A stretch of DNA of 64,000 nt from Hormiphora californensis (GCA_020137815.1 CM035355.1:3348001-3412000); one strand, 5' to 3'; positions 801 through 51,895 are shown, numbered from the stretch's first letter. The notes: generated from the letters alone by a model not told the origin. Made by a program: numbers and translations.

Positions 801-1129
801 ATTTTGTTCCCCAAAGGGTTGAAAGGATTTAATGTCAAGTTTTACACGGGGGTGGTACCTAATTGACAGGGATCGTGTGTGTAAACTGAATGTGCTCCGG
901 CAGCTCCGTATGGATATAATAGTCCTACTCATAACATATATCTTTTTATTTATGACTTATTTATCAAAGTCTGTCCAATAGTATAACACTAATACGTGAC
1001 AGTACCAATAGAGGCTCTTGTGAGAGTTTTGACGGTAAGTGAAGATAGATCCTTTAAAAGTTATTTTTTTGGGGGGGGAAGTGTGTGGGGGGGGTTTAAA
1101 AAAAGTTTGGGCCCCCCCCGGGGGGGGGG

Positions 1130-1580
1130 GGGTGTGTAGAAGAGCAGGTAGAAGGAGAGACAAGTGCAGTTGAATTTCACTGGGGTGTGTGAGAGCAGAA
1201 CAGGAAGTGAATAGACGGTTAGAGAATGAGTGTAGAAAAAGTAATTGGACTAGGGTGTGTAGAAGAGCAGGTAGAGGGAGGGGACAAGGTGTTGAATTTT
1301 ACTGGGGTGTGTAGAAGAGCAGGTAGAGGGAAGGGAGAGACAAGTGCAGTTGAATTTGACTGGGGTGTGTAGAAGAGCAGGTAGAGGGAAGGGAGAGACA
1401 AGTCAGTTGAATTTGACTGGGGTGTGTAGAAGAGCAGGTAGAGGGAGAGAAAAGTGCAGTTGAATTTGACTGGGGTGTGTAGAAGAGCAGGTAGAGGGAG
1501 GGGACAAGTGCAGTTGAATTTGACTGGGGTGTGTGGAAGAGCAGGTAGAGGGGGGACAAGTGCAGTTGAATTTGACTGGG
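1130..1580. repeat. Minisatellite, ~58-60-bp unit (GGGGTGTGTAGAAGAGCAGGTAGAGGG...ACAAGTGCAGTTGAATTTGACT)
   Basis: About 7 contiguous copies with no unique spacers. Confidence 0.9.
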
Positions 1581-1829
1581 GCTGAATTATATTCAATACA
1601 ATGAGTTGCTGTGAAAGTAATCAAACTTCTTCTGACGCGAGCCCTCCTAGATTGAGTGCACCCCGGGGCCCGGACAAAGGGAGTGCAATCACACATGATT
1701 AACTGCACACAAAGAGATTGGTCGGCATCATAAAGAGGCCAGGAATAGTCTGCTTTTTTTTATTTATTAGAAAGACTTTCTCAGAAAGTACAAGAGTTGA
1801 ATTCTAATATCATGCCTCGTCGTGACTTA

Positions 1830-4150
1830 CAATTCCGTATGAAAAGGGTAGAGTGATGTAGTTGTTACTTGGGCCACCCATTACAATCCCCATTTCCTCC
1901 CTGTCCTCTTTGTCGCTAAGATCAACTGTTCGGTCCCTGAGAAATAGAGCATGATAACGTTCTACAGCGTGGTACTACAAGAGTACTATGGAATCCAAAG
2001 ATAGCTGCAGGGTAACCATGGTAACAACTAACAAAGAGGAGACTACAGTAAGAGCTAACGGTAATAGTAAGACGAGGTAAGACGTAACTATGGTAATCGA
2101 CATGGTAACCACAGTAACCGACAAGGTAACCACAGTAATCGACAAGGTAACCACAGTAACCGACATGGTAACCACAGTAATCGACAAGGTAACCACAGTA
2201 ACCGACAAGGTAACTTACGCTGAACTAGTTCCCACATAGACACACATGGGATATTTGTAAAAATCAATTTCATCATCTTTTTTCTCCTCATCCCTCTTAT
2301 CCTTTCCCGGCTCCTTCTTTTCCTTCATCTCCGTGACACAAGTATCATTGAGAAGGTAGAGTCCCGCTTCCGAGCCCTTGAGGCTCCATTGAAACACTGC
2401 CCTTCCGCTCCCTCTGTAGAGTGAGAGAGAGTTATTGAGCTGTCAAATACACATGATATACATTAATTAACACGTCATGGTGGTGTGACTTCTCAAGATC
2501 AATAATTTAATTTGGATGTGACACTAACGTGAGGTTGTAGAGTGGTCCACCGATGGCGTATGCCTCAAGATGAATAATCTCGCCCCATCCAATAAATCGG
2601 CCGAAGGATTGGTACTCCACCACCTGAGCGTATGAACTGCTCCCCGGATCGGGCACACTGTCATTATCATCTGGTAGGGGGGGGGGATGAGTTATTCTCG
2701 TGGAAGCTTCATCTCTTTCTCTCTTCTATAAAACATCTCTCTTGCTTACAATACAGTAGGGCAAAACCAATTGTGATATTGTTGACAAACTATTACCTTG
2801 TAGTGTTTGCTCGGACGTTGTCTTGTTCTTCTGGAACTGCATCATGTCGTGTGGTGGGATGGTTTTCTTGAACTGAGAAGGTGACATTCCAGCCATCTTT
2901 GGGTCTTTCTTTACCATCTCTTCAAACTGCTCCTTGGCGTATTTGCAGAAAGCTTCCATGTCGGTGTAGAAGATGGTACATTTGTAAGTTCCAATGTCGC
3001 TACTGGATCCTGCATCAGCATTTAGAAAACCATGGAAAATGAGCGACCCTCTCTTGTATGCTGCACAGAAAATAGAAAACGGTTAGAGAAGGTTACGAAA
3101 TAGCCACGTGGAGGAGCAAAAAAAAGGTTTTGTAAAATGTTTAGATCTAAACAACAAATACAATTGACTTACATCCAACGTTATAGTCGATGGGAAAGAC
3201 CCTGTGTGTCGGCACGAAATCTTTATCATCTTTGGTCCACCCAAACTCAGGGAGTGGATACCAGTCTGTTGGCATCTCCTTGGCACCATTACATTTCAAC
3301 TCATTTACGTATGATTTAGAGATGGACATAGGCACTTTGGTGTCCGAGGAAGGCGTCGCGGATAGGTCACTTTCCTTGATAACTGAAAATAGATTGGTCA
3401 GTCCCAACTGGCTCAGTGAGCTGCATTTGCTGCACCAGTGTAATAACTAATTTTCTGAGAGGCACAACACCATATATGGACATCACGTGATTACTTACCG
3501 ACTTTCTTGACAGCGACTGTGTTACTACGTAGAAGCTGGGTATCACCATTTGCATCTTTAACGTTTGCGACACAGTAGTACACAATGTCCTCAGTGACTG
3601 AATCAACAACCAAAGTATCATTAGTCGCATCACTGTGAGTTACCGCCTTGAAGTCTGCTACTTCCTGGGATATACTTCAGTTACTATAACATAGTACAGG
3701 TGAACAGATCTCAACCCAGATCTAGCACTACACCATGCCCCACTCTGCCCAGATTTGAAGGTGCAATTGGAACTTTTGTCTCGTCTGGAAAGGCCCTAAT
3801 ACGACATCACCCGCACCGACAACTTACCCCTTTTCCAGATTTGAAGGTATATGACGTCACTTCGGTGGGATAAAGGAGACCGCTAACAACGCACACCATA
3901 TTGATCCCCCCGGAAACAACTTCACACGCCAGTTGACCAGTTGCCTCAATGGGATAGGCATACCAATCGTCTTTACAGAACATTGTCACCTCTGAAAGAT
4001 AATATGTTTAGTTCAGAACTTATCTCATATAAAGTCAAATCGTAAAGCAACTACATGACACATACCTAAGTTGTTGCATCGACCACATGTTGCCTGTGTA
4101 GTTCCGGCAAGGACCGCGGCGGTAACCAGCACCACAAGTAACTCTCTCAT
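1830..4150 (-). CDS. Secreted/cell-surface immunoglobulin-superfamily protein (multi-exon; 3' end unresolved, probably continues below 1830)
   Basis: ATG at 4150 gives a signal peptide MRELLVVLVTAAVLAG. GT-AG exons at ~4067-4150, 3829-3992, 3499-3664, 3172-3430, 2797-3062, 2528-2672, 2218-2415 and 1830-1937. Ig motifs: MVCVVSG...IVYYCVANV and ELKCNG...PLPEFGWTKD...DIGTYKCTI. Confidence 0.75.
2075..2215. repeat. Intronic 21-bp tandem repeat (GGTAACCACAGTAA[C/T]CGACA[A/T])
   Basis: About 6 copies abutting a splice donor of the Ig gene. Confidence 0.85.
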
Positions 4151-5064
4151 GACAAACAAACAACGATACTGACCAGCTGACACATCTTATACCCGAGATC
4201 TGTTGCGGGGGCGGAACCGCTTACACTGTGTCAGCCCATTCGAATAGTATTGAAGAAGCCACGAGGATATTTGTGCAAGCCGATCTAAGGTAAACCATAG
4301 CCCATAATGTCGAAAGGGGGTTTCTTCATGGACCCTGCTCGCCGGTGGGTTCAACCAGTTTGCCCTGGCGGCTGGCTTGAGGCTATTATTGATGCCTGTG
4401 AATTCATTTATTTTGAGGGTCGAGACGGCCGACGGGGTAGGGATCGATCTGGATTCTGGGATACCCGTAAAGGTTTGGCTAGTAGGGGGTGCAATTAGGT
4501 ACCTAAGTTACCAGAGATGAATTTCTCAAAGTTGGTACTGTTTGGTCGTGGCTTGCCTTCCTTGAACCTGTTTCTCCTGGTTAGGACAAGTCGTGACCTA
4601 CTCTGCATGCTAGCTGTACGCTGTAGTCCCCTGTGTATCAGGTCAGCCGCCAGGGTGACCGTCAATTCAAGTTGACCGTGTAGGTCCAAATAAGGCACAG
4701 ATATTTTCAAGACGAATCCACCACAGCCGGAATTAGCTTTCTATCTCATTGGGAGGTGTCGAGTCTGGCACCTTTATTTTTAGTCATTTTTCGGATAAGA
4801 AGCGGTGAGAGGCCAAAATTTAAAATTCCAACATTCATTTATTGAATTATTGGGAAATGTCAACGACCGGTGGACTTGAATGAATGAATGAATGAACATC
4901 ACAATTTGTATTAGAGTCATTAACAGACCCTTCCCGCTCTTACACTATAGACATATTATATAGTTAAATATATATATCCTACAAGGCCGAGAGGCTAAGA
5001 GCATCGGCAGTTACCTAAAGCGGGGTAACATATAGAAACAGTCCGATTGATAAAGTTCAGTTCG

Positions 5065-6087
5065 CTATCCAACTTGGATCACATTGTTTCTGATATAATA
5101 ATTGCCACCTGGATCATCTGTACGAACCCGTTTCAAGGTGGCTAGCAGAACTTTTCGCTCCTTTAGTTGGGAGGGGTTAAGATCTGGCGACAGAAATACG
5201 GTAGAGTGTTTTTTGGATTCTTTGAGCTGCCGTGCCTTCCTCAGCAGCGCCAAAAGGGTTGCTCTCTTCTCAAGAGATACCAAGAGCGGCCTAGGGCGTT
5301 CCTCGTTTCTCTCACCGATACGTTTCATGTTGGCAACTTTCGGTTTCTCGTTCAATATTTCAAATAGCTCATCCAGATTGGCTCTAGTATCATTCTCAGT
5401 TGTTTCTGGGAGCCCAAATATTACCAAGTTCTTCTCTCGGTTTGCCTGGGCTACTACTGTAGCAGGAGGTTTAGAAGTTGGTGGCTTAGGAGGAGTTGGC
5501 AGCTTTTTCGCCACAGGGGAGGATGCAGCATAGTTTTGAGCCAGGACTGTCGAGTAGGCTTTCACCTTCTGCACTGATGTTTCCACTGAGTTCAGTTGTT
5601 CCTTCTGAACATTTATGACCGTTTGTTCCAGTTCAATGACCAACACACGATTTCGTTCAAGCTCTTCTTTGCACGTAGAGAGTTGCTTTTCGAGTTTCTC
5701 TGCAGTGATCACTGTATTCAAGTTGTTCATGGCTGCTTGCGCAAGTTTAGCACTGGACATAAAGAGACGGGTGGTGACATCAATAACTTGATTTGGAGTA
5801 AGGTCCTTAAGACGATGTTTGAAGAATGTCCCCATGTGATTTTCGGGTGGGTCCGAGCAATCAGGGGTAAACGCCCTCGCAGGTGCATATTTGATAGAAT
5901 TATAGCACTGACTAACGTTCTCGGGTGTGATACGTATCTGTTCGGGAACAGCAGCCCAATGCAGCCGTTCAACTCCCAAAACAAAGTCATCAACGGATTC
6001 GATCAGTTGTTTTATCTTTGGATTATCGCCCTCGTACGGTAAGCGTAGTATATTATCCAATCGTTTGTCTTCGAACATCGGCTTCAT
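5065..6087 (-). CDS. LINE ORF1p-like protein (coiled coil + RRM-like + CTD; L1TD1/transposase_22-like), intronless, 340 aa
   Basis: Heptad-rich segment (LEKQLSTCKEELERNRVLVIELEQ), then the ORF1p motifs NREKNLVIFGLPE, RIGERNEERPRPLLVSL and VFLSPDLNPSQLKERKVL...YYIRNNVI. Confidence 0.85.
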   Translation of the reverse strand: MKPMFEDKRLDNILRLPYEGDNPKIKQLIESVDDFVLGVERLHWAAVPEQIRITPENVSQCYNSIKYAPARAFTPDCSDPPENHMGTFFKHRLKDLTPNQVIDVTTRLFMSSAKLAQAAMNNLNTVITAEKLEKQLSTCKEELERNRVLVIELEQTVINVQKEQLNSVETSVQKVKAYSTVLAQNYAASSPVAKKLPTPPKPPTSKPPATVVAQANREKNLVIFGLPETTENDTRANLDELFEILNEKPKVANMKRIGERNEERPRPLLVSLEKRATLLALLRKARQLKESKKHSTVFLSPDLNPSQLKERKVLLATLKRVRTDDPGGNYYIRNNVIQVG

Positions 6088-6142
6088 TATCAGCGTTTCA
6101 CTTTTCTGCCCTTTGGGGCGGTCACATCACCATATCTACCTG

Positions 6143-6178
6143 CTCAAATTAATTTGTTTAAAGTAGTGTTGAAAAGTT
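6143..6178 (-). other. Genomic copy of a ctenophore spliced-leader (SL) exon-like sequence: AACTTTTCAACACTACTTTAAACAAATTAATTTGAG
   Basis: 36-nt sequence read directly, 55 nt upstream of the ORF1 ATG. It matches my recollection of published cydippid SL sequences (ending ...AATTTGAG). It is followed by CAGG, not by a GT donor, so it is not a canonical SL RNA gene. Confidence 0.75.
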
Positions 6179-6363
6179 CAGCAGAACTCTGAAGCAACTC
6201 GCAACCAAGAAATCGCGGAAAACTGGCTATACCTACCAGGAGTGTATTCGATACCTCCGTGTTCGTCTATCATTTTCAATGGTTCGCTCCATAACTTGTT
6301 CTATTCGGGGTTACAGAGGAAGGAACAAGAATGATGGCTCTTCATCAGATCTGTACCATACAT

Positions 6364-6511
6364 GAGGCCCCTCGGAAATGTTCAAGTCATGCACAATCAA
6401 GTCACGCCCACCAATCACAGCTCAGAACGCGCGGAGTGCTTCGCGCGTTCTGCGCTGTGATTGGTGGGCGTGACTTGATTGTGCATGACTTGAACATTTC
6501 CGAGGGGCCTC
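6364..6511. mobile_element. Palindromic MITE (~148 bp), AT-flanked (ISL2EU/Harbinger-related, tentative)
   Basis: GAGGCCCCTCGGAAATGTTCAAGTCATGCACAATC... is paired with its near-perfect reverse complement. AT on both sides. Confidence 0.7.
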
Positions 6512-6971
6512 ATACTAGTCTTTAACTGTTGCATGTATTTTATGTGATTTTCTTCGTGTAGCCAGTCAGGCAAAAACAATTTATATATACTATTATTGAC
6601 ATTGTTAGGCCAGATGCATGTGGCTTCTTTTATTACAATTTTTGCTCAGTTTTAAAGTCCGTTTCAAGCGACTTGACCCGTAATTCTTGGAATTTGGCGA
6701 ATTGCGCGTGTATTTACAAAGGGGAAATCCTGAATTTCAAGGAATCTCAGCTCAAGTCGTTATTATTGGGAAATACCGGAAAGTATTGTACTCGGCGAGC
6801 TTAAACTGTTTACGTTGCATTTTGACGCGCGCCGCGCTTTTCATTGTAAATGCAATTTTTAAAATAAAAAATCAGCTCAACTTTTTTCAAACGTTATTTT
6901 TAGCATGAATTTAGGAATCCCATATAAAATTGAACTATTCCAGAAAGGCTGCGGAATGTTCTAACACCAAC

Positions 6972-9900
6972 ATGGACAACCTCGCACGAGCCGTTAGTTC
7001 GCCGAAACAAGAAGCTCCAAAACCCGGTGAAGATGGCAGTTCCCCTCCGGGTGCAGTTGTGGAGAGCAGTTTGGTGAGGTTGGAAGGAGTAACCAAGAAA
7101 GCTGAGACTGGGCTAGTGTTTTACAGGTTAGAACCTTCCCTACGTTTACCACCTTTTTCAGTTACATCTTATCTTGGTAATAAATTTCGAATTCAGATTC
7201 ACTAATAATTATTTTCTGACAGGACATGTTATGTAGATGACAACCGGTTTGTTGTCAACCAGAACGCCTTGATAGAACACCAGGGGAAGGTGAGGATTGG
7301 GAACATCCTCAAGTTTTACTGCCGCACTGTTGGAAATGAGCGAGTTTTGGTGCGATGGTATTTCAAGGATGAAGACCTTGATAAACCTCAGCAGAGTGTA
7401 CCCCATGAGATTTACCTGACCTGTTACACTAGTAAACTATCAGTTAGGAGTCTTGTTAGGCTGGTTCACCTTATCGTGGTGGTCAATAAAGATGAAATTC
7501 CGGATTCTGCTCCAACCGATGTTTTTTATGGGTACAGGTATACAATGATGAAGCTAACTTGTTTCTTTTTTAACGGCTGTTTTTGGTATTTAGACTGTGA
7601 TAGATCAGATCTAATATAATGTCATTCTTTAGGTACTTTGACCACGACTCAAAACAACTTTTGGAACACTCTGGTCAGCCTACCTTTACTAAAACAATGC
7701 CCCTACCCTCGGACAACGTCCAGGGCTCCTCAATGAGCCTGAACGAGGCTGAGGTGGAGAAGACCATCCAGTTTAGCATGCCCTTCACTGATAAGGATCG
7801 AACTTTTTACAAGTAAGTCCAACCACGTTTCAGATCTGAAGAAGGTACTCATCAAATTGTTATAACTATTCAGGCTAGGTGCTATCAGCCAGAATACAAT
7901 CGTTGATAACACCTCCCCTCTAGAATGTGTTCAGTGGGGCACGAAAGATATAAAATTGGTGATTTCGTCCTTCTACGTCAGCGAGATGACTCTTCAATTC
8001 GACGGATCATCCGTTTCAGTTATGATCATGATCAGAGACCCGTAGCTCTTGGCCAACTGATTTATTTTCCTAGCGAGGTATTTTGGTTAGGGATGGGGAT
8101 GGAGAACCACCATTGGTGGTATAATTTTCTGTAGTAGCAGGCAAGCAGTACAGCTTGTGGTTCTGCCGCAGTTTCTAACTTATACTCTCTCTCTCTCTCT
8201 CTCCAGGTAACGCTCCAGCCGAAGGACCGATCCCTGCTGCACCCCCAGGAGGTAGTTGTCAGTAACTGGAAACGAATCCTCCTCGTTACGAGTATCCAGA
8301 AACGGTTAACGGTCATAAACCAGAACATATTTGAACCTATAGTACCAAGTAATAGGGTGTGTTTGTATCTGAAACGGTACTACGATCCATTCCAATATCA
8401 GGTGAGAGGAGGATGGTTATTGGTTTGTCTCTCTTTATTTTTATTTCACAATTTATAAATCTCTTTTTCTGTCGTCTCCCCATCTACCTGATCAACCTGA
8501 CAACGCCTTTCTACCTCAATCCTTCCCCAGATAAGTCCCCTGTTGGAACCTTTGACAAGATCTGATTTCTCTATTGTCCCTGCGCCCCTAAAACCCTGTC
8601 TTCACACTGCAGTTCTTAGCAATCCAGTTGAGGAGGGTGAAAAGAACTCGTTTGTGTAAGTAGGACAAAAAACAACAAATAGAACTTTGGTGTAACCTTG
8701 TTCATACCGCATTGCTCATACCGCATTGCTCATACCGCATTTTACTTCATAAATCGTTCGGTAGATCAAGTGTAACCGACCCGGTAAAATAATTAGCATG
8801 GTCACCCTCATCCCCAATCCAACACCCTCCTCCCTATTCAGGACGTGCAAAGTTGGTCATGAGGTATTTCGGATGGGAGATTATGTAACCCTTCAAGCGG
8901 GTAGTGCAGCAGTGCGAGTACTGGAGTTGTACCACCTTTATGGGACAGCCGTCATGAAGTGTAACAAACTTTTTACCCTGGTTAGTTTTTGTTAGTTGTT
9001 AGTTTTCATCTTGGTTGTTATGGTAACGGTTCAATTCCGATCGTCTGTAGCTATGGAGATTGGAGACACAGATATCACTGTAACTCCAAAGATATAAACT
9101 AACCCAGATCTCTCCCTATTAGAAAAGTGTCCCATCAAACCTGCGGCCTCTCCTCAGCTCCAGCCTCATCTTCAGCTCTGTCGTCTACACGGATGTGCCC
9201 TGTAGCCTCTTTTTTGAAAGGATCAATGTTGTATTTAGCAGGGACAAAGTGACAGACTCCGGGACCTTTTTGGCCGGTGATTACATGGATTTTGAGAACA
9301 AACAAGTTTACAGGTAAACACAAGGCAGTACTGGCAGTACTGGCACTAAATTTAGAAATTCAATATGTGTTCGAATGGACAATTTGTATTATTTTCAGTT
9401 TGGAGGGCGGTACTGACTCACTCGGTGTGAGAGATATCCCTAGACCGGGTAAAAATCTCTCCAGCACGGACACCACCAGCGTCTCATCCCCTAAAGTTGC
9501 TGAATCCAAAAAGCGGAAACCCTCGACCCCTGCTCAACCTGATGGAGTCAGGAGACAGGCCGAAAATTCCAAGGTAAGAGTACTATTTTTGGGGTATTTT
9601 TGTATTTGAAAACCAGTAAAATAAACCATGACTTCAATTTACAGCTTAGTAATTTTAAAAAGATATTTCTAAAACACATAATATCTTATCTCCCAGAAGC
9701 AGCCGAGAAGCAGTGAATCATCCTCCCCGTCCATCACCCGAACTGTGGAACAGCAGAAGCGCAGGAAATTAGATCCACCCTCGTCCACAGTAGTAGTTGA
9801 ACCACGACAGAAAACAACTTATGATAAGATGAAGGCTGCCCTTCAGCACCAACCACCCTCAGAACCAGCAAGGAGTAACATCTTTCAGACGCTCACCAAG

Positions 9901-29871: not shown

Positions 29872-31075
29872 CTAAACAAGAGCGGATTTACAGGGTCGGG
29901 TAAAGGACGTATCAGCGAAACTAAAAGGGTTCAACTTGGTAGCGACTGTTCTGGGTTGGATTGTCCCCCCTGGTCCTCCTGTGTTCTGGATCCCGTTAAC
30001 ATCTCGACTTATCGCTGAAACTATTCTCCGCCGGGCAAAGTTCTTAAAATCCCTGTTTACTAAAGTGTACAAAATGGGATTCCCCACACTGTTGGTGAAG
30101 AACAGATACGTTGCTAGGCGACCATATAGATCAGGTAGACTAGTCCCCCCAAGCATGTGGGCTATATTAGGTACCCAGCTAATCAATATAACTGATGAAA
30201 GTGCACCTAGTGTCAGGAATGTCCGTTTCATCCCCCGGTCCTTTCGTTTTCGGACAGTGTTATTTGGTGTCGTGTGGGCCCGGACACTCACCTTTCTAAT
30301 CTGGATTCTCCGGGCTATCTGGGTTCTTGACACGTGACACAACACGAGGTGTGACGTCATGACAATGGCAGTGGGTGCAATTAGCAGGACTGACACGTAC
30401 AGGTACTTCTCGACCACGTGTAGGACGGAAAAGTTGAACTCACAGAACCCTGTCTCAACAGAGAACATGGAGGGTGCGGATCCAACTAGGAGTCTGAGTG
30501 AGAGGACAAAGCTGTAGAGCCATATCATGAGGGATATGGCAGTGAACCGTGATGCGGGATTATTATAGTCTCTCAGGGGTCTAATCCCCTGGATCATCCG
30601 GTGTATGGAGATGGTAGTAACGAAGTTAACAGAGGAAAGGAGGAGGAAGAGTCGGAGGGCAGCCCCCGCTCGACAGAGGGCAGGTCCAAAACACCAGTAT
30701 TTGCTGAGGTTGGTGACCAGGATGGGACTAATGATAAGGAGAGAGTAAAGTCCGTCTGCTGCGGAGAGGTTTCGAGCAAAGATTAGTCCCCATTTATCTA
30801 ATCTGTAGGAATAATGAAGGTAGAAATTAATTAGAAACTGATATAAGAACTCATGAATTTCAGATATCAGGAGATTGAACTCGTTGAACGATATTAGGGA
30901 TGTGGATATATAGGACTCACCTAAAACTCCTATATCTGAAGGTGAGACTGACAACAAAAGCGTTGGCCAGGACCCCGCTACACATCATGATGAGAGTGTA
31001 GAACACCAGAAGAAGTCGGGTGTAGTCACTCGTTACCCTGTCATAGTCAGGAGTAGACGAGACTCGACCCTCCAT
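29872..31075 (-). CDS. Class A (rhodopsin-like) GPCR, non-opsin, 2 exons
   Basis: ATG 31075 gives MEGRVSS...LLLVFYTLIMMCSGVLANAFVV (TM1). Intron ~30804-30921 (GTGAGT...CTACAG). Then NLSAAD (TM2), WCFGPALC, ISIHRM (DRY position), WVP (TM6) and NSVGNPILY (TM7). The N-terminus of the ORF-track protein is largely intron read-through. Confidence 0.9.
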
Positions 31076-50069: not shown

Positions 50070-50716
50070 AAGAGAATTGGTATAGAGATGGCACCAGCCT
50101 TTACAGTTGCCATGACAACTGCACTAGAGTTATTGGCTCTCTCTCAAGGGTGCATCAGTTGTGTGATAAGAAACTCAACGCGTTCAATATATGTATCTGT
50201 GTTTGTGAGGGGCCTCACGTTATGCACTGCCATGAAGGCTCGATCTCAACATGCGATCATCAGCTGGACTTAGGAATCGTCTTGAATTCCATTTAATGTA
50301 GTTTGTGTGTACTGTAAACAGTAGGCAGTAGCTTAAAATCGTTACGTCTCAAGAGCGTGAGCTTTATTATTACGGATTACCCGCTGCATAATAATTTTGC
50401 AGAAGCTACCACTGCTCTTGATAAAATATTGTTGTTATTCCAAAAATATTATGTTACCAAGTTTCCAATCCAGAATATACAATTCTCAGCTCCTGCCAGT
50501 GACTTGTTTACCAGACTCATGTGTCCTAATTCCTGTTATATACAGGGGGCCTGCGGGGCACGTGCTGTATTAGGGAGTGCCATATAACTGATAAGACTAG
50601 GTAGACATGTGATCTCCTCTGCCGGCCCCCTCCTCCTGCCGACAATTACAGTGTTACTAATTCTGTGTTCTCCCCATTTTGTAGATGTACCACCGCCACA
50701 AGTTTGATATATCAAC

Positions 50717-51895
50717 ATGCTTTCCTTTCTACTTCTGATATCCTTTCTTAAAACTACAACTGCCGCCATCACCTGCCCCTCAGTGAACAGTATAACACCG
50801 GTATACGGTGCGGGGGTGAAGAATATTACCGCCACAGCCTCGGACAACAACGTGGGCTCAATATACAATTTCTGGTGCTCAAAGTACCTTGATTTGGTGC
50901 CGGTGGACCCCCGGTGGAGGCGGTGTCAGGAGGATGGCACCTGGTCAGGTCCAGATCATGTTTGTGTACCGAAACCCGATGCGAGATGTGAGGAGTTGGT
51001 CCTCCCCGATCATGTTGTGACAGATCCACCACTGCAGTCGGAGTACCTACTGTACACTGTGTTGGGACTGAGTTGTGAACGGGGATGGAGGGGAGTTGGT
51101 AACTCCACCCTTCAATGCAACTACATGGGGAAGTGGAATCTGAATTTCACGTGTCAACCAGTTTGCCTTACCGAGGATTTACCTGTGGGAACGGTAGCAC
51201 CAGCAGGCCCTGTCCAGTACAGAGTGGGGGATAGTATACATGTCTCGTGTGTAGAGGGGTATTTCCCTACTACAAACGATACCGACCTAGCCACCTGTAC
51301 TGACGAGAGGGTGTGGCAGGGGGCATCCTGTCGCCCTGGATGTGACACTAAAAATCTTGATGAAGGAGTAGTAATCGACGAAGTTGGTGCAACACGTTAT
51401 GTTGAAGCCAATACGAGTGTGATATTGGCATGTGAAAATGGGTATAGACAGTCTGGGTCTGAGGAGGGTGTGTGTGATGCGGGGGGAGAGTGGCAAACGA
51501 CAATATCCTGCTGTAAGACATGTCCATCCTTCCAACCCTACTTGGAGGTTGAGTTTTGTGAGGGAGAGACCTTGTCAGCGGGCCCAGATATCACACTCTC
51601 ATGTTTGGAGTGTTCGGGGGAGTTGATTTGGAGGACTGACGGGGATTGCAGCACTTCAAACTCGATATTTTCACTTCAGAACTATTTATATTGGGGGACC
51701 ATAGCTGCTTTAGTGACAGTATTAGCGCCGTTGGTGATAGTTTATGTTAGGCATAAAACATGTAGAAATAAGGTAGTAACTAATTCAGAACTCGTAACGG
51801 TAAAACCGGCTAGCAAAGAGTTTATAATCGTGAACAATTATTTGAATAATGACGGCAATTATCATCATATAATTAGTAGAGAAGAGTCGTTTTGA
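50717..51895 (+). CDS. Sushi/CCP-domain type I membrane protein (4 CCP modules), single coding exon, 392 aa
   Basis: Signal peptide, then CCP motifs RRCQEDGTWSGPDHVC, LQCNYMGKWNLNFTC, ATCTDERVWQGASC and GVCDAGGEWQTTISC. TM YWGTIAALVTVLAPLVIVYV. Confidence 0.92.
   Translation: MLSFLLLISFLKTTTAAITCPSVNSITPVYGAGVKNITATASDNNVGSIYNFWCSKYLDLVPVDPRWRRCQEDGTWSGPDHVCVPKPDARCEELVLPDHVVTDPPLQSEYLLYTVLGLSCERGWRGVGNSTLQCNYMGKWNLNFTCQPVCLTEDLPVGTVAPAGPVQYRVGDSIHVSCVEGYFPTTNDTDLATCTDERVWQGASCRPGCDTKNLDEGVVIDEVGATRYVEANTSVILACENGYRQSGSEEGVCDAGGEWQTTISCCKTCPSFQPYLEVEFCEGETLSAGPDITLSCLECSGELIWRTDGDCSTSNSIFSLQNYLYWGTIAALVTVLAPLVIVYVRHKTCRNKVVTNSELVTVKPASKEFIIVNNYLNNDGNYHHIISREESF

Follow-up and report, generated by a model that had tools for sequence, protein, structure and literature searches.

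A 64,000-nt stretch of Hormiphora californensis DNA (GCA_020137815.1, CM035355.1:3348001-3412000; hereafter the window) carries a copy of what is probably a non-autonomous, ORF1-only LINE-type element, whose RNA would be trans-spliced by the host and then retroposed, leader included, by an autonomous LINE partner. The family as a whole has likely copied itself from host-spliced RNA repeatedly. We favour repeated reverse transcription of trans-spliced RNA because the 3' join of the leader is fixed among relatives, the 5' ends of the leaders are ragged and the flanks are unrelated. The unit in the window is 1,313 nt long and consists of leader, 5' UTR, ORF1, conserved 3' UTR and a short tandem tail. 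Its parts and the repeats around it are as follows, with positions counted from the first letter of the window.

6762-6774, unstranded: upstream copy of a 13-bp direct repeat
6362-6513, unstranded: palindromic MITE-like insertion with 75-nt arms (97%), outside the family unit
6179-6189, minus strand: probable variant 5' end of the leader, starting with GAGTT like the published leader
6143-6178, minus strand: spliced-leader core of 36 nt with the 3' end TTGAG, matching the published leader in its 3' part without differences
6088-6142, minus strand: 55-nt 5' UTR, multicopy, homologous to the UTRs of relatives L001, P0251 and P0008
5065-6087, minus strand: intact ORF1 of 340 aa, with a predicted helical N-terminus, coiled coil, RRM and CTD (L1 ORF1p-like fold)
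4895-5064, minus strand: 3' UTR, sharing conserved blocks with L003 and, in part, with L002
4877-4894, minus strand: (CATT)4 tandem tail, the sole such run in the window
4846-4858, unstranded: downstream copy of the 13-bp direct repeat

The sequence-only reading that preceded this analysis had placed a 36-mer at 6178-6143 (minus strand), 55 nt before the ATG at 6087 and joined to CAG rather than to GT, and all of this was confirmed. The 36-mer occurs once in the window, and no second leader site was found there at up to 10 mismatches. The sequence-only reading took it for the cydippid spliced leader (SL), to be sought at mRNA 5' ends; indeed, it coincides letter for letter with the 3' 36 nt of the 44-nt H. 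californensis leader, which is found on 56% of Iso-Seq reads (PMC8527503). The premise that a genomic SL occurs only in SL RNA genes was wrong, as 718 copies of the leader are reported for the H. californensis genome and 491 leader-motif matches for Mnemiopsis in that study. Directly upstream of the 36-mer, 6189-6179 can pair with 6178-6174 in a 6-bp hairpin (fold z -1.07, not significant on its own). The window copy is probably a full-length, 47-nt variant of the leader (6189-6143), judging from its GAGTT start and this potential hairpin. GAGTT is repeated at 6200-6190, 11 nt upstream of the leader start, either by chance or perhaps as what is left of an older leader 5' end.

This locus does not look like a true SL RNA gene, one of the outcomes against which the trans-splicing idea had been set. 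There is no GT donor straight after the leader exon, nor an Sm site in a short non-coding intron: the T-run matches in 6178-5950 fall only in the exon (6150) and in the ORF (5982). CAG|GT was considered as a splice donor and rejected, the GT 3 nt on being GA in L001. No Rfam SL match was obtained for the window, ctenophore SLs perhaps being absent from Rfam, and viral and prokaryote contigs yielded 0 matches to the leader pattern. The genomic leader lies 5' of an intronless ORF, the arrangement of relict-leader retrocopies.

The join between leader and UTR is readable in eight records, namely the window, three of the four loci compared (L001, L002 and L003, with L004 excluded) and four of 281 proteins (P0251, P0008, P0215 and P0071). 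Most other proteins begin at their own ATG, so the join is invisible in them; the leader type of the window has stops in the frame leading into this UTR. The leader or its last letters stand at the identical join in all seven relatives. L001 starts with the leader (26/26 nt identical), followed by CAGGAAG, i.e. the same join and no GT, and L003 retains the GAG alone. L002 has 9 other nt, then a different leader-like 42-mer (L002 10-51) that ends in TTGAG and resembles the first leader at both ends, and then the UTR. The translation of this second leader directly precedes the ORF1 UTR in P0251 (14/14 residues), P0071 (13), P0215 (9 and a variant start) and P0008 (the last 3 only). P0071 is a Pleurobrachia bachei EukProt entry, and we take the P. 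bachei entries to be genome-based gene models. P0104 and P0211, which show no more than a bare FIE match, were left out of the leader evidence.

The residues upstream of the second leader differ across P0251, P0071, P0215 and P0008, whereas L002 and P0251 have two of three upstream residues in common. P0251 and P0008 are sisters (~99% identical, end branches of 0.006) that differ upstream and in leader length. Both group with the L001 protein (100/99). Since they share the tree group and the UTR type of L001, the sequence comparison shows one UTR type to occur with two leader types (L001 versus P0251). With the first 45 residues of P0251 as a query, only P0008 was returned (2 candidates). The 42-mer, a putative second spliced leader, was not found in the literature searched. 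L001 and L003, which start inside the leader, may be plain mRNAs. The ENA and JGI contigs may be DNA or RNA, and assembly chimeras are possible at the 42-nt repeat.

The intronless LINE-ORF1-like gene claimed at first sight was borne out. The ORF at 6087-5065 (minus strand) is uninterrupted over 340 aa, and Pfam and PDB sequence searches with it returned nothing significant. Its AlphaFold model (mean pLDDT 64; 78-90 over residues 221-340) combines a long coiled coil with a C-terminal part that is predicted with confidence. Foldseek searches with this model gave human L1 ORF1p in 11 of the 12 matches at E<=0.001, at ranks 1-11, with E values from 1e-5 to 1e-4 (best 1.3e-5) at 14-20% identity. 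As modelled, the protein is thus an L1-type ORF1p with coiled coil, RRM and CTD. It has 27 close homologs and 4,230 representatives at E<=0.001, the nearest named relative being a P. bachei entry (83%); no relatives were found in viral contigs. L004 (36% over 94 aa, no leader) was set aside as a distant ORF1. The dN/dS values of 0.16-0.23 against L001-L003 (dS 1.65-1.79) show, at the level of these alignments, that the family is under purifying selection. The L001 protein is 60-62% identical to the window ORF1 with synonymous sites near saturation (dS 1.79). Family variants in the ORF taken from run contigs, 16 among the matches listed, are evenly split between synonymous and non-synonymous (8 each), a split to which we attach no weight. 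One P. bachei entry (P0070, 671 aa) has an ORF1 fragment fused to a PSF3 (GINS) sequence. This fusion probably arose in gene modelling, from an element lying shortly upstream of a host gene, and it hints that family copies sit in outrons.

The unit carries ORF1 only. The interval from the stop codon at 5065 to the tail holds no ORF2, no RT ORF was seen by eye among the ORFs listed for the window, and a weak search found no homolog longer than ORF1-only. The 133 homolog contigs among the matches listed have a median length of 1,327 nt (112 between 1.0 and 1.8 kb, 3 above 2 kb), which is supporting evidence only, short contigs being usual in these collections. Among known elements, the closest in content is HAL1 (half-L1) of mammals, a non-autonomous non-LTR element that encodes only an ORF1p with an L1-ORF1p-like fold (PMC5753468). 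Unlike HAL1, the window unit has a leader as its head rather than the L1 5' UTR promoter, and its descent from L1 proper is putative.

We used three DNA runs, X1, X5 and X10, the last from organism B, and an RNA-like run, X7. The depth over the bins of the element body (4953-6122), which is not a copy number, was 5,500-40,800 in X1, 3,600-36,900 in X5 and 900-7,700 in X10, compared with 170-580, 200-730 and 16-80 for the single-copy flanks. The UTR depth at 6133 was 11,428, 7,339 and 1,699, respectively. All three DNA runs place the family far above its flanks in depth: it is clearly a repeat in both organisms, A and B, and behaves as an interspersed multicopy element. Genomic leader copies are common and dispersed in varied contexts, because many distinct contigs leave the leader with an agreement of about 0.5, both upstream (18, 26 and 22 contigs in the three DNA runs) and downstream (16 in X1 and 14 in X10). 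X7 was judged RNA-like because its MITE and single-copy bins are near zero and its leader bin reaches 4,185, versus 0-6 elsewhere. Two of its contigs are identical to the window copy, at 6007-6158 and 5277-5470; the first includes 16 nt of leader, too few for a formal bridge, and such contigs show neither the start nor the strand of an RNA.

Homology of the window with L003 continues to 4926, and a TATAAAT-like motif common to the members is followed by (CATT)4 in the window and by different 6-mer tandem repeats in L002 and L003. All three members with a readable 3' end thus have short tandem tails, which resemble those of CR1/L2-type LINEs. HAL1 elements end in poly(A), whereas the window unit ends in a short tandem tail. 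One X5 contig (4670-4920) spans the junction between tail and flank without differences, and X1 agrees up to the repeat. An L1-like poly(A) tail with a target-site duplication was not found at the window unit. The search for a duplication returned only a 4-nt TTCA match at the unit ends (TTCA, the last letters of the tail, also stands directly before the leader at 6193-6190) and the distant 13-bp repeat. Unique upstream flanks with target-site duplications had been named as the mark of a retrocopy: the flanks do differ among relatives, but no clear duplication is present. Nor do we take the 9-nt direct repeat at 6181 and 5060 for such a duplication, because the L003 homology runs on to 4926. 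In the 3' UTR, a long-range stem is predicted between 5024-5017 and 4940-4933. Single folds gave z -3.59 for L003 and -1.05 for the window, as well as -0.79 for L002, whose stretch ended before the 3' arm of the stem; across the three 3' UTRs, RNAalifold gave a consensus whose covariation term was 0.01. We regard this stem as a lead only.

Based on these data, we propose the following cycle. The host would trans-splice the element RNA, and an autonomous LINE partner, presumably recognizing the conserved 3' UTR, would reverse-transcribe it with its leader. Neither such a partner nor a transcript start was found in the sequences covered here. ORF1p would be retained for a benefit to its own RNA. 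The least certain part concerns re-expression: trans-splicing would strip upstream sequence, so that new copies would have no promoter of their own and would be transcribed by read-through from host promoters. The window copy lies between two divergent host genes, with ATGs at 6972 (plus strand) and 4150 (minus strand), and is upstream of the second, in the same direction. That minus-strand host gene has a signal-peptide-like start. Our best guess is that a fresh leader would be spliced onto the terminal AG of the old genomic leader. GAG is a poor and unusual splice acceptor by general splicing rules; nevertheless, such re-splicing would explain both why relics are not stacked and how one leader type gives way to another. 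Of the two options in the sequence-only reading, reverse transcription of a trans-spliced element RNA with its leader is supported, for the whole family and not only for this copy.

A bolder version of this cycle, which we advance tentatively and hold to be somewhat less probable than its negation, would be that of a long-lived promoterless family that uses the host leader as a self-renewing head and its own terminal AG as acceptor. Each copy would land behind a host promoter, get whichever leader the host supplies, translate ORF1p and be recopied; much of the 718 Hormiphora leader loci would then be such copies rather than SL RNA genes.

It is also conceivable, although we consider it unlikely, that leader-headed copies are dead ends, and that the lineage is carried by a small number of master loci, each with its own promoter, an outron and a true YAG acceptor, or by occasionally retroposed un-spliced RNAs. 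The leader would have the same retroposed origin as in our proposal, the difference lying solely in the re-expression step. Such masters would yield two leaders on one UTR with no need for a GAG acceptor, and the longer block inside the 13-bp repeat could be an un-spliced unit of greater length. However, none of the eight records with a readable join is a source locus with an acceptor in place of the leader, the kind of locus that the sequence-only reading had proposed to look for. Furthermore, the RNA-like X7 contigs match, without differences, either this leader-headed copy or its nearest sisters, and intact ORFs are frequent.

Retrotransposons that target SL genes exist, including SLACS, CRE and CZAR. 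NeSL of nematodes targets leader genes as well, so that a leader adjoins a non-LTR element there too (PMC4640811). On this model the element would insert at the exon/intron boundary of SL RNA genes and the leader would be host target DNA, which we find very unlikely here. Just past the tail there is a GT at 4875-4874, and an Sm-like 8-mer (AATTTTGG) at 4820-4813, 55 nt behind that GT; the pair could be left over from an SL RNA intron or have arisen by chance; the window contains 9 such 8-mers on both strands. The similar last upstream residues of L002 and P0251 would also fit. Nevertheless, that flank folds like its shuffles (z 0.28). No joint from the leader to about 4875 was found among 15 of 17 joints in X1, X5 and X10, though intact SL genes would have high depth; joints beside the skipped tail were perhaps dropped in X1 and X5. 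A conserved SL-gene sequence upstream of the leader was not observed either, as six records differ there, and the leader of P0008 is shortened. Lastly, NeSL is autonomous, encodes a restriction-like endonuclease and resides in SL RNA genes, whereas the window element has neither RT nor endonuclease, only ORF1, and variable flanks.

Purifying selection, expression (X7) and the absence of ORF2 would all be expected if ORF1 had given rise to a domesticated host gene family, comparable to L1TD1 in mammals, that sheds processed copies. This reading is nonetheless highly improbable given tens of copies by depth and several subfamilies in one species, P. bachei entries falling in at least three clades. 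In addition, the locus appears to be empty in organism B: an 847-nt X10 contig links the 6775 side to 4555-4219 and is too short for the element. This contig suggests an empty site, and its 6775 piece may be a repeat.

The second option of the sequence-only reading was that the leader had been captured once in a longer 5' UTR behind an internal promoter, mimicking mRNAs without trans-splicing. The putative promoter motif is present at 6226-6214, but a promoter role found no support. In favour of a longer unit, depth in organism A marks 6240-6356 as multicopy (23,066 and 19,462), and the 13-bp repeat brackets a longer block, the element with 572 nt of upstream repeats. In organism B, however, the bin 6240-6356 has a depth of 0 while the element body is multicopy. 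The leader is perfectly preserved in L001 despite near-saturated synonymous sites, two leader types occur at one join, and the near-identical P0251 and P0008 differ upstream. A single capture is therefore hardly credible for the family, and less firmly so for the subfamily of the window copy alone. As for the 13-bp match, 8 of 1,189 overlapping control stretches have one by chance, which corresponds to ~1 locus among about 145 independent stretches, and no tail precedes its downstream copy.

The block upstream of the unit is itself a mosaic of repeats. The MITE-like sequence at 6362-6513 is a near-perfect 152-nt palindrome. It reaches very high depth in organism A, and contigs from X1, X5 and X7 show the empty site (joint 6360>6511). 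Rfam gave miRNA-like matches on this palindrome alone, which are spurious and far below gathering scores. An insertion of ~137 nt at 6516-6652 is missing in some contigs. A second palindromic high-copy repeat (6653-6761) is truncated at 6761 relative to its other copies, exactly at the 13-bp repeat, and 12 X5 contigs leave the window at this edge. On the other side of the unit, 4705-4749 is a short, very high-copy repeat in organisms A and B, reversed in one organism B contig.

An assembly artefact or cDNA contamination can practically be dismissed: although no match listed spans the leader/UTR join with 31 nt on each side, and organism A DNA thus offers no formal bridge among the matches listed, the tail/flank and 6761 junctions are spanned without differences in X1 and X5, all three DNA runs show the UTR as multicopy, and the independent records L002, P0071, P0215 and P0251 all have a leader and upstream flank on ORF1.

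Leader-bearing retroelements or retrogenes have been described in other lineages. In Schistosoma mansoni, 6 of 32 extra leader loci are merged to transposable elements and were possibly trans-spliced and retro-transcribed (PMC5832876), and in flatworms 597 discarded partial-leader loci were tied to LTR and LINE elements (PMC12582326). As in our case, a genomic leader stands at a retroelement and an origin from trans-spliced RNA was proposed. In contrast with the present family, these are side remarks, assembly chimeras were left open for S. mansoni, and the accessible parts of the two papers contain no family-level analysis, fixed join, leader switching or ORF1-only element. Dinoflagellate retrogenes keep relict DinoSL sequences (PMC5585692; Slamovits and Keeling 2008, cited there), as the sequence-only reading had stated. 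There too, the leader was copied into DNA ahead of an intronless ORF, and both re-splicing at the relic AG and a promoter role were proposed (PMC5585692). However, the dinoflagellate parents are ordinary host genes, often with stacked, decayed relics, whereas the window ORF is a LINE ORF1p of a mobile, multicopy ORF1-only family with one mostly intact leader. In Hydra, about 30% of TE Iso-Seq reads carry a spliced leader (PMC12220107); TE RNA is trans-spliced in this non-bilaterian animal, but this concerns RNA only, and genomic leader-headed copies go unmentioned in the accessible text. The window element works like a cross between HAL1 and the leader-relic cycle of dinoflagellates, and strictly belongs to neither group.

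The literature searched, which covered few subscription papers, contained no leader-headed retroelements in ctenophores and no leader-headed ORF1-only family. Likewise, the accessible parts of PMC7986045, PMC2566580, PMC4664967, PMC6053224, PMC12460157 and one 2026 preprint contain nothing on leader-headed retroelements. The novelty is smaller than at first claimed, as leader-fused transposons had already been reported in the two flatworm studies. The fixed join, ragged 5' ends and leader switching provide family-level evidence for retroelements cycling through host trans-splicing. They also offer an origin for the hundreds of dispersed Hormiphora leader copies, to which the accessible sections of the genome paper assign none (PMC8527503). 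Genomic leader matches in ctenophores should not be equated with SL RNA genes. If re-splicing is true, trans-splicing would do away with the need for the internal promoter on which non-LTR elements usually rely, and a genomic leader would mark full-length insertions. The variant 5' end of the window leader makes re-splicing directly testable.

Elsewhere in the window, two long single-exon-like ORFs were noted, one at 29872-30984 (minus strand) that by eye resembles a seven-helix receptor, and one at 50708-51895 (plus strand) that by eye resembles a sushi-repeat membrane protein.
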